The notes: generated by a model not told the origin, from the sequence alone. Shown: positions 36,261 to 47,191, numbered from the stretch's first letter. The stretch is DNA of 64,000 bases from Escherichia coli (GCF_002854065.1 NZ_CP024147.1); one strand, 5' to 3'. Numbers and translations are program-made.

Positions 36261-36275
36261 GGTAGTGACTCCAAC

Positions 36276-36779
36276 TTACTGATAGTGTTTTATGTTCAGA
36301 TAATGCCCGATGACCTTGTCATGCAGCTCCACCGATTTTGAGAACGACAGCGACTTCCGTCCCAGCCTTGCCAGATGTTGTCTCAGATTCAGATTATGTC
36401 GCTCAATGCGCTGAGTGTAACGCTTGCTGATTACGTGCAGCTTTCCCTTCAGGCGGGATTCATACAGCGGCCAGCCATCCGTCATCCATATCACCACGTC
36501 AAAGGGTGACAGCAGGCTCATAAGACGCCCCAGCGTCGCCATAGTGCGTTCACCGAATACGTGCGCAACAACCGTCTTCCGGAGCCTGTCATACGCGTAA
36601 AACAGCCAGCGCTGGCGCGATTTAGCCCCGACATAGCCCCACTGTTCGTCCATTTCCGCGCAGACGATGACGTCACTGCCCGGCTGTATGCGCGAGGTTA
36701 CCGACTGCGGCCTGAGTTTTTTAAGTGACGTAAAATCGTGTTGAGGCCAACGCCCATAATGCGTGCACTGGCGCGACAT
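36276..36779 (-). CDS. insB: IS1 InsB (expressed as InsAB fusion by frameshift)
   Basis: 167 aa ORF overlapping insA. Confidence 0.85.
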
Positions 36780-36973
36780 CCGACGCCATTCATGGCCATA
36801 TCAATGATTTTCTGGTGCGTACCGGGCTGAGAGGCGGTGTAAGTGAACTGTAGTTGCCATGTTTTACGGCAATGAGAGCAGAGATAGCGCTGATGTCCGG
36901 CAGTGCTTTTGCCGTTACGCACCACCCCGTCAGTAGCTGAACAGGAGGGACAGCTGATAGAAACAGAAGCCAC
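36698..36973 (-). CDS. insA: IS1 InsA
   Basis: 91 aa [40 protein letters not shown]. Confidence 0.9.
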
Positions 36974-37085
36974 TGGAGCACCTCAAAAACACCATCATAC
37001 ACTAAATCAGTAAGTTGGCAGCATCACCCAGTTAAGCGTATTATTGGTGCAGAGCCCGGGCGTACCGGGCTCCGTTTTGAGGGGG

Positions 37086-37499
37086 TTATGTCCGGACCAG
37101 CGCTTTTTCTGACACCACCATTTTTATTTGCCCATGGTTAGTGAAGTGTACGCTCATCCTGTGGTTTTTTTGCAGTTGCTGATAGAGTTCATCAGGTATT
37201 GCTAAGCTCTCTGCATATTCTTGCGGCGTGTATTGGTATGCTGCATGATGCTGCTGTTTTTGATAACGCAGCTTGTTGTACAGCGCCCAGATAATTAACA
37301 CGACGGCATTCGTCACCGCCACGAAAAAATAGAACTGAAGTCTGCTTCGGGCATCGCTTTGCCAGTAATAACCCGACAGCAGATCCATGGCGAATAAGAA
37401 TATAAACAAAGCAAATAACGCCCACAGGATAGTCGTAGCTACATAATCAACCAATAAATGTACTGGCGATTGTCGGGTCGTAATAATTAAATTGTTCAT
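37086..37499 (-). CDS. pgaD: PGA synthesis protein PgaD
   Basis: 137 aa, [41 protein letters not shown]. Confidence 0.9.
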
Positions 37500-37500
37500 A

Positions 37501-43266: not shown

Positions 43267-43956
43267 CCTGTATTACTCCATGTATTGCAAAAATACTCTC
43301 TTCGCGAATGTCCAGTTGGCTGAAAAGAAAAGACTTATTCACATCAAAAACCCGTAATTAAACGAGGAATAAAGACGCTAATTGTTGATAGTGAGATGAA
43401 GAAATGGTGAGCTGAGTGTTCCTATCAAATCCTTTACTTTCCTCGAAAATCCATCCCAAAAGGGAAGGACTACGGGGATTCTGCATAATTCCCTATGCGT
43501 CTTTCAAGGTAATAAAGGATTAAAATAATTAAATCAGTAAATTCCGAGTGGTGATTTCGGATTTTTCGAAAACCCTGATTCAATGCGGTGTTGCAGCATT
43601 ATTTTCTGTAATAATTACTCTTGATGACTATATGAATTATTGTTTTATGGGGGGGTATAATGATTTATGAGTTTTTACAACTTATTGCAGTAGTGAATCT
43701 GTAAAATATTAAGATGGTGATTGTTTACCTGTGTAACTATGCTCGTTAGGGAAGGTGCGAACAAGTTCCTGATATGAGATCATCATATTCATCCGGAGCG
43801 CATCCCAGAGGGACATCATGAGCCATCAACTCACCTTCGCCGATAGTGAATTCAGCACTAAGCGCCGTCAGACCCGAAAAGAGATTTTCCTCTCCCGCAT
43901 GGAGCAGATTCTGCCATGGCAGAATATGACCGCTGTCATCGGGTAGTGACTCCAAC

Positions 43957-44460
43957 TTACTGATAGTGTTTTATGTTCAGATAATGCCCGATGACCTTGT
44001 CATGCAGCTCCACCGATTTTGAGAACGACAGTGACTTCCGTCCCAGCCTTGCCAGATGTTGTCTCAGATTCAGGTTATGTCGCTCAATGCGCTGAGTGTA
44101 ACGCTTGCTGATAACGTGCAGCTTTCCCTTCAGGCGGGGTTCATACAGCGGCCAGCCATCCGTCATCCATACCACGACCTCAAAGGCCGACAGCAGGCTC
44201 AGAAGACGCTCCAGTGTGGCCAGAGTGCGTTCACCGAAGACGTGCGCCACAACCGTCCTCCGTATCCTGTCATACGCGTAAAACAGCCAGCGCTGACGTG
44301 ATTTAGCACCGACGTAGCCCCACTGTTCGTCCATTTCCGCGCAGACGATGACGTCACTGCCCGGCTGTATGCGCGAGGTTACCGACTGCGGCCTGAGTTT
44401 TTTAAATGGCGGAAAATCGTGTTGAGGCCAACGCCCATAATGCGGGCAGTTGCCCGGCAT
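43957..44460 (-). CDS. insB: IS1 InsB (copy 2)
   Basis: 167 aa. Confidence 0.85.
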
Positions 44461-44654
44461 CCAACGCCATTCATGGCCATATCAATGATTTTCTGGTGCG
44501 TACCGGGTTGAGAAGCGGTGTAAGTGAACTGCAGTTGCCATGTTTTACGGCAGTGAGAGCAGAGATAGCGCTGATGTCCGGCAGTGCTTTTGCCGTTACG
44601 TACCACCCCGTCAGTAGCTGAACAGGAGGGACAGCTGATAGAAACAGAAGCCAC
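44379..44654 (-). CDS. insA: IS1 InsA (copy 2)
   Basis: 91 aa, near-identical to copy 1. Confidence 0.9.
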
Positions 44655-45823
44655 TAGAGCACCTCAAAAACACCATCATACACTAAATCAGTAAGTTGGC
44701 AGCATCACCTGTCATCGAGCCGTTTTATCCCAAGGCGGGCAATGGCCGACGGCCCTATCCGCTGGAGACCATGCTGCGTATTCACTGCATGCAGCATTGG
44801 TACAACCTGAGCGACGGTGCCATGGAAGATGCCCTGTACGAAATCGCCTCCATGCGCCTGTTTGCCCGATTATCTCTGGATAGCGCCCTGCCGGATCGCA
44901 CCACCATCATGAATTTCCGCCACCTGCTCGAGCAGCATCAACTGGCCCGTCAATTGTTCAAGACCATCAATCGCTGGCTGGCCGAAGCAGGCGTCATGAT
45001 GACCCAAGGCACTTTGGTGGATGCCACCATCATTGAGGCACCCAGCTCTACCAAGAACAAAGAGCAGCAACGCGATCCGGAGATGCATCAGACCAAGAAA
45101 GGCAATCAGTGGCACTTTGGCATGAAGGCCCACATTGGTGTCGATGCCAAGAGTGGCCTGACCCACAGCCTAGTCACCACCGCGGCCAACGAGCATGACC
45201 TCAATCAGCTGGGTAATCTGCTTCATGGAGAGGAGCAATTTGTCTCAGCCGATGCCGGCTACCAAGGAGCGCCACAGCGCGAGGAGCTGGCCGAGGTGGA
45301 TGTGGACTGGCTGATCGCCGAGCGTCCCGGCAAGGTAAAAACCTTGAAGCAGCATCCGCGCAAGAACAAAACGGCCATCAACATCGAATACATGAAAGCC
45401 AGCATCCGTGCCAAGGTGGAGCACCCGTTTCGCATCATCAAGCGGCAGTTCGGCTTCGTGAAAGCCAGATACAAGGGGCTGCTGAAAAACGATAACCAAC
45501 TGGCGATGTTATTCACCCTGGCCAACCTGTTTCGGGTGGACCAAATGATACGTCAGTGGGAGAGATCTCAGTAAAAACCGGAAATAACGCCAGAAATGGT
45601 GGAAAAAATAGCCTAAATAGGCTGATTCGATGTGTTTGCGGGAAAAAAATCGGCCCAGATCCGCGAAATTTTAATCAACGAGTCAGCTTGGGAAGAAATG
45701 ACCTGCTTATTCGCACCTTCCTTAGTATCTATTATATTTAGCTATTTATATTGACAATGGCATGTTTATTATATCTATTAATAGTGTAAAGAGATTTTAC
45801 AGCCTTCAGGTTGGAGTGGTTTT

Positions 45824-47191
45824 ATGATGAAGGACTATTTTGGAATTGGTAGTACGGTATTTGTGAGTTTGTTGTTCGGGCTTGCATTTATTTTGGTGAA
45901 TAGTTGGTTTCATCAGCCGACTGTTAAGGAGACTGTTCCGCAATCGACATATCTGATGGTTATGATTGCTCTGTTTGTTATTGATATAATAGCATTCATT
46001 TTTATGCAGTTATATTTCATTTATGATCGTCGACAATTTTCAAACTGTATACTTGGTTTAGCCTTTCTTAGCTGTCTGATTTACTTCATTAAAACAGTCA
46101 TTATCATTCAGCAACCTATTGAGAGGGGGCTAACTAACAGCATTATTCAAAATGATACTGCTATTTATTATTTTTTCAGGCAGGTAAGCTTATGTTTATT
46201 GATTAATCTGGCGCTGGTAATTAAGTTGAATGAAAAAAATGATTTGTGTGAAAGGTGGCATAAAAGAATCGGTTTTTACATCAGTGTGATTTTTATAGTT
46301 GGCCTGCCCATTATTGCTTTCATATTTAGTAGCCAATGTGAGAACTATAGTTTAACTATAGCTGAGTTATTAAATAAAAATGGCCGAGTTGTGTGGAAAA
46401 CGTCTTATGTTATCGTGCTGATATTTATGTGGTTAATGCTGTTGGCAGTTAATTTATATTTCAATCGTTTGCGTAGTGATATCTGGAATGGGGTATCGGT
46501 GATTGCTTTTTGTGCTGTGCTATATAATGTCTCTCTTTTATTTATAGGGAGGTATAGTGTATCCATTTGGTATATTAGTCGAACTATTGAGTTGTTCAGC
46601 AAGTTAACAGTTATGGCGATATTCATGTGTCATGTATTCAGTGCGTTGCGCGTGACAAAGGATATTGCACATCGCGATCCATTAACCAATGTTTTTAACA
46701 GAAATTATTTTTTCAATGAACTGAAAAATCAATCAGCATTAGCCAAAAAAAAACCTTATTGCGTCATGATTATGGATATTGACCACTTCAAAAAAGTCAA
46801 TGACACCTGGGGGCATCCGGTTGGCGATCAAGTGATTAAAACAGTGGTGAAAATCATTGGGAAAAGTATACGGCCAAACGATCTTTTAGCACGCGTTGGC
46901 GGAGAAGAGTTTGGTGTTATGTTGACGGAGATCGATTATGAAAATGCGGAAGCCTTAGCTGAAAGGATTCGGGCAAATGTTGAGCGTTTGACGGGAGATA
47001 ATCCTGAATATGCCATCCCACAAAAAGTAACGATTAGCATTGGTGCCGTGGTGATGCATGGAAATTCGTTAAAACCGAATGAGATTTATCGGTTGGCTGA
47101 TAAAGCGCTTTATAACGCGAAAGAGTCAGGACGTAACAAGGTTGTTATGACGGAGGCAGAAAATCTTATGAACTGGAAGGATGATGATTAA
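45824..47191 (+). CDS. dgcT: Membrane-anchored diguanylate cyclase (GGEEF), DgcT/YcdT-like
   Basis: 455 aa; N-terminal transmembrane segments; RVGGEEFGVM active-site motif. Confidence 0.8.
   Translation: MMKDYFGIGSTVFVSLLFGLAFILVNSWFHQPTVKETVPQSTYLMVMIALFVIDIIAFIFMQLYFIYDRRQFSNCILGLAFLSCLIYFIKTVIIIQQPIERGLTNSIIQNDTAIYYFFRQVSLCLLINLALVIKLNEKNDLCERWHKRIGFYISVIFIVGLPIIAFIFSSQCENYSLTIAELLNKNGRVVWKTSYVIVLIFMWLMLLAVNLYFNRLRSDIWNGVSVIAFCAVLYNVSLLFIGRYSVSIWYISRTIELFSKLTVMAIFMCHVFSALRVTKDIAHRDPLTNVFNRNYFFNELKNQSALAKKKPYCVMIMDIDHFKKVNDTWGHPVGDQVIKTVVKIIGKSIRPNDLLARVGGEEFGVMLTEIDYENAEALAERIRANVERLTGDNPEYAIPQKVTISIGAVVMHGNSLKPNEIYRLADKALYNAKESGRNKVVMTEAENLMNWKDDD

Follow-up and report, generated by a model that had tools for sequence, protein, structure and literature searches.

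Divergent pgaABCD-dgcT biofilm module within a tRNA-Ile2 island of Escherichia coli, probably captured together with the end of a serX-type island

The DNA considered here, hereafter the window, is a stretch of 64,000 nt from Escherichia coli (GCF_002854065.1, NZ_CP024147.1) that contains a complete pgaABCD operon for poly-N-acetylglucosamine (PGA) and, divergent from it, the gene of a dgcT-type diguanylate cyclase, accompanied by several insertion sequences (IS) and by two integrase genes (Table 1). A first-pass annotation, made from the sequence alone, had recognized this biofilm module, had assigned it to a tRNA-Ile island instead of a core location and had described the operon as bracketed by two direct copies of IS1. 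The gene assignments proved right in full: the minus-strand open reading frames (ORFs) between 37086 and 43266, of 137, 441, 672 and 806 aa, correspond to PgaD, PgaC, PgaB and PgaA, and the divergent gene at 45824-47191 encodes a 455-aa protein combining MASE4 and GGDEF domains.

The four pga genes are co-oriented and stop-free in the order pgaA-B-C-D, as in an operon, and their products have essentially the same lengths as in K-12 (807, 672, 441 and 137 aa, respectively) and in locus L004 (see below). PgaC keeps the QxxRW motif (QRLRW at residue 292), and in PgaB the residues that we take, from PgaB structures, to be the metal-binding and catalytic ones (H55, D114, D115, H184 and H189) are all conserved; for PgaA, the Pfam domain PgaA_barrel is recorded for the neighbouring gene in loci encoding an identical PgaC. 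The cyclase aligns with K-12 DgcT over its full length, matches MASE4 at residues 41-274 (4.6e-60) and GGDEF at residues 282-439 (4.7e-49), and possesses both the GGEEF motif (residue 359) and an RxxD I-site (RPND at 350). The first 240 nt of the pgaA leader contain 8 GGA motifs, versus 7 in K-12. As none of the five genes is disrupted, the module in all likelihood continues to encode a full PGA apparatus, consisting of PgaC/PgaD activated by cyclic di-GMP (c-di-GMP), the PgaB deacetylase, the PgaA porin and a dedicated MASE4-GGDEF cyclase, whose gene travels together with pgaABCD in the captured block; by homology to K-12, we expect it to produce PGA, deacetylate it and export it, all controlled by c-di-GMP. 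Stimulation of the PgaC-PgaD interaction by c-di-GMP is reported (Steiner et al., 2013, as cited in PMC5635171).

Table 1. Features of the pga-cyclase module and of the island around it (positions counted from the first letter of the window; L004 and L016 are comparison loci described in the text)
Feature	Position	Strand	Evidence
ileX, tRNA-Ile2 (CAT anticodon), island integration site	21824-21899	+	ARAGORN, Rfam; tRNA-Ile annotated at the same place in 774 and 1506
Left 60-bp direct repeat, 3' 47 nt of ileX + 13 nt	21853-21912	+	60/60 match to 61569-61628
hsdR', truncated type I restriction subunit, ~657/1038 codons left, ORF runs into IS1	34290-36260	+	alignment to 1506 hsdR
IS1 copy 1, 768 bp, insA + insB intact, no target duplication	36261-37028	-	element ends, ORFs and flanks read
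Left edge: last 7 nt of phoH + shared phoH/pgaD terminator region	37029-37085	-	L004 homology starts at 37029 (L004 15155; phoH ORF end 15149)
pgaD, 137 aa	37086-37499	-	90.5% aa identity to K-12, 99.3% to L004; Pfam PgaD recorded for identical neighbour gene
pgaC, 441 aa, family 2 glycosyltransferase (GT2) PGA synthase	37501-38826	-	95.7% aa identity to K-12, 100% to L004
pgaB, 672 aa, deacetylase/export protein	38819-40837	-	80.7% aa identity to K-12, 99.7% to L004
pgaA, 806 aa, outer-membrane porin	40846-43266	-	80.3% aa identity to K-12, 99.1% to L004
pgaA leader + promoter side of divergent intergenic region	43267-43749	-	collinear with K-12 and L004 intergenic regions
IS5, transposase gene split by IS1 copy 2	43750-45721	+	ends GGAAGGTGCG...CGCACCTTCC; TTAG at 43746-43749 and 45722-45725
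IS1 copy 2, 768 bp, insA + insB intact, nested in IS5	43942-44709	-	duplication TGTCATCG
dgcT-type diguanylate cyclase, 455 aa, MASE4 + GGDEF	45824-47191	+	75.0% aa identity to K-12 DgcT, 99.1% to L004
Right edge/attachment junction: serX-downstream (RtT-like) repeat unit + copy of serX 3' terminal 14 nt	47194-47309	-	L004 homology stops at 47309
P4-type tyrosine integrase, 402 aa, serX-type island remnant	47470-48678	+	annotated integrase in 1506 and CUPS03; Pfam Arm-DNA-bind_3 + Phage_integrase (L016)
ileX-island integrase, 438 aa, intact	60056-61372	-	100% nt identity to E. coli 1506; annotated tyrosine recombinase
Right 60-bp direct repeat bounding the island	61569-61628	+	perfect match to left copy

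The placement in a tRNA-Ile island was also correct. The module lies within 39.7 kb of DNA that interrupt the core chromosome after the tRNA-Ile2 gene ileX, with mug-ileX on one side and nfeF on the other; in K-12, ileX and nfeF (yqjH) are adjacent. The tRNA gene is intact, its 3' end is repeated at the far border, an integrase gene is present, and the content at ileX varies among strains. The surrounding core DNA is E. coli-like, since dnaG, rpoD, mug, nfeF and nfeR are 98-99% identical to those of E. coli strains 774 and 1506. In both of these strains the same IS1-pga-cyclase-integrase block is found at ileX, and in strain CP52E it lies between glaH/ygaQ' and ypjA, a stretch that we take, from the K-12 map, to be the ileY neighbourhood.

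The allele carried by this island is a divergent one. The pga-cyclase DNA of the window is only 83% identical to K-12 at the nucleotide level and a pga match was obtained in 4400 of 5426 complete E. coli genomes, at 80-90% identity to the window in 4233 of them and at 95% or more in 105. A scan of one genome per species, which needed exact peptide words and was not exhaustive, returned four loci: one of 'E. coli' SCPM-O-B-8794 at 99% (L004), two Citrobacter loci at 75-77% and a Leclercia locus at 48%. In L004 the genes stand in native chromosomal synteny (csgDEFG-ycdZYX-ghrA-serX-dgcT-pgaABCD-phoH-efeBOU-putP), and the window is 99.5% identical to it over 37029-43749 and 99.3% over 45719-47309; the cyclase gene diverges from pgaA there, and in the native-synteny locus L015, as it does in the window. 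The flanking core genes of L004 are 89.6-93.8% identical to K-12, and those of two further native-synteny loci, L014 and L015, are 97-99.5% identical to L004 and 92-93% to K-12. The divergence of the L004 flanks is comparable to that separating E. marmotae from E. coli, put at ~10% of the genome in one report (PMC12754014).

Both edges of the captured DNA point to the native site of the operon. On the left, homology to L004 begins directly after IS1 copy 1, 7 nt inside the phoH 3' end, and fuller copies of the block in strains CUPS03 and EC24 have an intact phoH preceded by an IS3-family element. On the right, beyond the cyclase gene, the window retains one repeat unit, which shares 94.8-96.6% identity with the three complete units found next to serX in K-12. 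Homology stops at 47309 after TGGCGGTGAGGGGG, which equals the final 14 nt of serX in reverse complement; from there on the sequence is island DNA (ACCGCCTGAAATAAATC...), followed by the gene of the 402-aa P4-type integrase. The junction ...TGGCGGTGAGGGGG|ACCGCCTGAAAT is, base for base, the one that E. coli AREA_492 has at its native serX locus, in which a canonical dgcT is followed by an integrase of the same family. The arrangement dgcT-repeat-integrase occurs in 288 complete genomes, 30 of which match at 99% or more, that is, carry the divergent allele. A second copy of the attachment (att) sequence was not found, the repeat query having matched only itself within the window, and for this reason the serX-type island is regarded as no more than a remnant. 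The repeat adjacent to serX is called 'RtT sRNA' (small RNA) by the annotation pipeline PGAP in K-12 and relatives; Rfam RtT gave no match in the window at the gathering threshold, because the window has one ~114-bp repeat unit fewer than 1506 and CP52E (compared with locus L003, 28157-28451).

The two edges differ in nature, the left one being formed by an IS. The IS1 copies share the ends GGTAGTGACTCC...GGCAGCATCACC, intact ORFs of 91 aa and 167 aa and the same orientation. The position first given for copy 1 was exact, and that of copy 2 needs to be moved one base to the right, to 43942-44709. Copy 1 abuts the truncated hsdR on its left and the captured chromosomal DNA on its right, and its flanks GTCGTTGGG and CAGTTAAGC reveal no target duplication. 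None is present even in genomes with an intact hsdR, and copy 1 is therefore a recombination joint rather than a simple insertion. Its left joint takes four forms, lying 145 bp downstream of an intact hsdR (774, 1506), inside hsdR (the window), at ygaQ' (CP52E) or beside gadE-mdtEF (CP047094.1), a block that is itself followed by a further IS1. The right joint, IS1|CAGTTAAGCG ('phoH), is common to 21 complete E. coli genomes, all of them lacking both copy 2 and the truncation of hsdR. What remains as hsdR' corresponds to nt 1-1971 of the hsdR of E. coli 1506, which is 3117 nt long, and 1291 bp are gone in comparison with 1506 and 774, namely the 3' 1146 nt of hsdR and the 145-bp spacer.

Copy 2 has a different setting, since it is nested in an IS5 that occupies the pgaA/cyclase intergenic region and whose flanks are contiguous in L003 and L004. 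The IS5 spans 1972 bp, or 1195-1196 bp once the IS1 and its duplication are subtracted, and matches annotated IS5 copies at 99.7%. As had been noticed at first pass, copy 2 alone has a target duplication, TGTCATCG at 43934-43941 and 44710-44717 (8 bp, or 9 bp counting the terminal C). The hsdR'|IS1 joint of the window, an IS5 or IS5::IS1 with pga on its left, and copy 2 at its window site were each found in 0 of the 5426 complete E. coli genomes. The record CP047094.1 (L016, 3374180-3395505) matches the window from 36260 to 48826 at 99.93%, both IS1 copies and the IS5 included. On this distribution the bracket of two IS1 is judged to be recent and confined to a narrow clone. CP047094.1 is deposited as 'Salmonella sp. 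S13', yet it carries the E. coli ileX island; at such identity its organism label looks wrong. In this record, a 5.9-kb gadE-mdtE-mdtF block between two direct IS1 replaces the yee/Ag43/hsd part of the island. The IS5 nesting, the hsdR truncation, the differences between the IS1 copies (38 positions, see below) and the non-E. coli-type allele with its integrase att border had all been overlooked by the first-pass annotation.

Taken together, these relationships make it probable that 37029-47309, without IS5::IS1, derives from the core chromosome of a divergent Escherichia lineage, of which it represents ~8.3 kb ('phoH-pgaDCBA-dgcT and the repeat downstream of serX), and was moved with a serX-island end into the tRNA-Ile2 island. 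In the donor, a P4-type integrase island would have been integrated at a serX 3'-end pseudo-copy just beyond dgcT; the integrase end of that island and the adjoining chromosome would have been transferred together into E. coli, and the block would then have become established in an island at tRNA-Ile2 (ileX or ileY), where an IS would have served as its left recombination joint (IS3 in older forms, IS1 copy 1 here). Since on the right the captured DNA ends in an att junction that derives from serX and adjoins a P4-type integrase gene, it probably hitch-hiked with the serX island. Later and separate events in the line of this strain would have been the arrival of an IS5 between the two divergent promoters (pgaA and dgcT), the entry of another IS1 isoform into this IS5, and an IS1-associated deletion of 1.3 kb that removed the hsdR 3' end.

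The allele is also known from E. coli chromosomes at the native site. Mostly in pig isolates, it lies at ~2.8 Mb with a 98.7-99.0% match, and SH19PTE6 (L023, NZ_CP073768.1 2825001-2875000), a member of this class, displays a recombinational import of at least 45 kb, in which solA-csg-pga-efe-putA is 85-95% identical to a K-12-like genome and identity rises abruptly to 100% from rutR; many pig isolates appear to share this import. In the native-synteny locus L014 (GCA_051967955.1), an IS3-family element lies between efeB and phoH and an IS903-type element truncates the cyclase to 445 aa. These two IS joints also bound raf-gene-linked island copies (L011/L012, EC24-type), a recurrence that hints at a second, independent capture of the divergent allele mediated by IS homology.

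Several points weigh against a capture from another lineage with the serX island, or limit its reach. The genome to which L004, a single contig of 34 kb, belongs was deposited as E. coli, and its status as a separate lineage rests on local divergence and on its place in a one-genome-per-species collection. Because ordinary E. coli of the SH19PTE6 class carry the allele at the native site, the immediate donor could have been an E. coli. The direction of the transfer, its route, in particular that into the ileX island, and present-day expression are what we infer from these observations. Finally, IS5::IS1 could alter the regulation of pgaA and the cyclase.

In most carriers the island copy is the only one. 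Among the 21 genomes with the IS1|pgaD joint, about 15 match pga at one place only, that of the island copy; strains 774, 571, CUPF12 and CUPS03 have two matches each. At the native site of strain PT62, serX-DUF2726-phoH is found without pga or dgcT, the pga-negative haplotype described by Cimdins et al. (2017; PMC5635171). In E. coli 1506 the native pga-dgcT (L022, NZ_CP059288.1 2770648-2778498) is K-12-type and has been destroyed by IS1, of which one copy connects dgcT and pgaA, both truncated at the 5' end, and another interrupts pgaB. As a separate observation, independent IS1 insertions in the canonical pgaC/pgaD/phoH region were seen in 17 other complete genomes. It is conceivable, and we propose it only tentatively, that serX-island carriage of ~8 kb with a complete c-di-GMP source and effector restores the capacity for PGA biofilm where the native pga-dgcT is absent (PT62) or IS1-destroyed (1506), and that it has been kept by selection; if true, a core biofilm module would here have undergone, in nature, a 'specialised transfer' by means of an island.

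The opposite outlook is that the module is a decaying relic, with pgaABCD, the cyclase gene or both silenced by IS5::IS1 and the module due to be deleted through the IS1 pair. IS5::IS1 does sit between the two divergent genes, the neighbouring hsdR is already truncated, the native locus of 1506 has been destroyed by IS1, and pga has been lost from the same island in another strain. E. coli CUPF09 has this ileX island with Ag43, a GTPase gene, intact hsdMSR and, at its usual place, IS1; next come 5.1 kb of unrelated sequence, with fragments and two DUF262 genes, then an IS5 that occupies the same TTAG site but lacks ~150 bp on its left and, lastly, the divergent-allele cyclase gene; pgaABCD is judged to have been lost from this island between IS1 copy 1 and the truncated IS5. 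The CUPF09 match had also been considered as a footprint of the IS1 copy 2 joint and was dropped, since the IS5 extends ~40 bp further left before it is truncated. We nevertheless consider silencing and decay unlikely for the window, in which the five ORFs are intact and their products 99-100% identical to native-locus proteins. The insertion is separated by 483 bp from the pgaA start codon, and would thus be upstream of where a K-12-type pgaA promoter and its leader, ~234 nt in K-12-type operons, are expected; on the other side, 102 bp separate it from the start codon of the cyclase gene, and a conserved TTGACA box for this gene lies just downstream of the insertion. The arrangement is, moreover, kept at 99.93% identity in a second genome (CP047094.1). 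The first-pass view of the IS1 pair as a substrate for deletion or movement holds in part: IS-associated rearrangement and loss are observed in CUPF09, S13 and CP52E, and the left joints vary, but the predicted clean IS1 x IS1 deletion product is absent among the complete E. coli genomes, and no IS1-flanked pga unit was found at a new site in genomes or PLSDB plasmids.

A reverse transfer, in which an old island-resident paralogue gave rise to the native locus of the divergent lineage and to the SH19PTE6-type loci, would agree with the occurrence of the allele in several E. coli contexts (ileX, ileY, raf-gene-linked islands and the native site). It is improbable, however, because the island copy holds pieces of native-site flanks, namely the 7 nt of phoH (the intact gene in CUPS03 and EC24) and the serX repeat with the att junction, and because the divergence of the native-site flanks from K-12 is uninterrupted for 45 kb or more.

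Transposition deserves even less credence. Direct-repeat IS1 composites such as Tn9 transpose, and two full-length direct IS1 with intact insA/insB do flank 6.9 kb here, so that pgaABCD might have arrived, or might now move, as a Tn9-type unit (36261-44709). Unlike in Tn9-type composites, the outer flanks GTCGTTGGG and TGTCATCGA show no duplication, the IS1 isoforms differ, one copy is nested in IS5 with a duplication of its own, and no second location is known. The two copies mismatch at 38 of 768 positions, their longest identical runs being 91, 90, 54 and 53 bp, and are therefore independent insertions; at the variant sites, a test for copy 1/copy 2 hybrids among IS1 copies gave patchy patterns, which suggests gene conversion. 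Copy 1 occurs without copy 2 in 21 genomes, CP047094.1 differs from the window in the left outer flank only, with the right flank unchanged, unlike what unit transposition would produce, and the divergent allele was found on no PLSDB plasmid, where only the K-12-type allele occurs, on large records resembling chromosome pieces. A composite-transposon origin, to which we would give very little weight, is thus largely refuted already, and the first-pass conclusion that a single composite insertion did not build the structure is borne out, copy 2 having come later, into the IS5. That this is simply the ordinary core pga locus within a misdrawn island boundary, as the normal K-12 arrangement of pgaABCD with a divergent GGDEF gene might suggest, is refuted by the position between ileX and nfeF with both 60-bp repeats flanking, by the 83% identity to the E. 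coli core locus and by the native serX-phoH site, which lies elsewhere in related genomes.

Capture with a serX-island end, the reading we prefer, would not require a new mechanism; the locus is a known operon in a mosaic tRNA island reshaped by IS. With the pgaABCD-dgcT (ycdT) locus of K-12 it shares the five genes, their order and divergence, domains, catalytic motifs, the GGA-rich leader and the original neighbours phoH and serX; it differs in being 83% identical, in residing in the ileX island instead of between phoH and serX, and in its intergenic IS5::IS1. Like other tRNA-linked P4-type islands (serX in AREA_492, ileX in 1506 and 774, ileY in CP52E), it has a tRNA target, repeats of the tRNA 3' end, a tRNA-distal tyrosine integrase and mosaic cargo including Ag43, cbtA/cbeA and genes of type I restriction-modification (R-M); unlike in these, its cargo includes the core chromosome of another lineage still joined to a serX-island att junction. 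The junction resembles the product of specialised transduction or imprecise excision, in which the chromosome next to an att site travels with one end of the element, although no phage functions were identified here and the vehicle could be conjugation, transduction or large-fragment recombination.

In earlier reports, presence/absence and variable context of pga-ycdT in E. coli are described, with phage-like DNA beside ycdT (Cimdins et al., 2017; PMC5635171), as is pgaABCD on plasmids and phage-like elements (bioRxiv 10.1101/2025.05.09.653004); text searches of these two reports gave no mention of a divergent allele, of an origin from another Escherichia lineage, of a serX att junction or of a location at ileX or ileY. 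Likewise, in the literature searched, the coverage of which is incomplete, no description was found of the divergent allele, its native-locus origin, the serX att junction or its frequent status as the sole pga. The locus leaves unchanged what is known of how PGA is made and regulated. If the history proposed here is right, a supposedly core biofilm operon would have become accessory DNA, picked up with the end of an island at one tRNA site and landing in a different tRNA island, and the transfer would have crossed a species-level boundary within Escherichia. In practice, typing of pga by identity to K-12 would misjudge the carriers, ~2% of complete E. coli genomes, many of them with only the 83%-identical allele, and the surface-exposed PgaA and PgaB are ~20% different from the K-12 proteins. 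The joints of IS1, IS5 and IS3 document two effects of IS expansion, the destruction of native loci and the remodelling of the island copy.

Other features of the island and of the window are recorded here as minor observations. In the type I R-M locus at 31416-36260, hsdM (31416-32972) and hsdS (32969-34168) are intact and hsdR is truncated, so that the locus is probably methylation-only; the middle of hsdS (~33022-34010) has no match to the 1506 or 774 alleles, which suggests a different specificity. An Ag43/Cah-type autotransporter ORF of 973 aa lies on the minus strand at 27063-30164, and an Rfam 'IS102 RNA' match (29928-30164) covers its 5' end and upstream region. Further IS in the island are an IS903B-like ORF at 49287-50255 and an IS3-like orfA/orfB pair at 51092-52263, and a direct repeat of 75% identity (55839-56133 and 56315-56609) is close to YfjI/DUF3987 genes. 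Upstream of the island, in core DNA, an Rfam match to naRNA4 (CssrE, a nucleoid-associated RNA) was detected at 9420-9490 on the minus strand. Tandem SIB antitoxin RNA genes (976-1124 and 1351-1500, minus strand) lie within a direct repeat (748-1047 and 1123-1422, spacing 375 bp, 88% identical), and the pair at 748-1500 is presumably an ibs/sib type I toxin-antitoxin pair.

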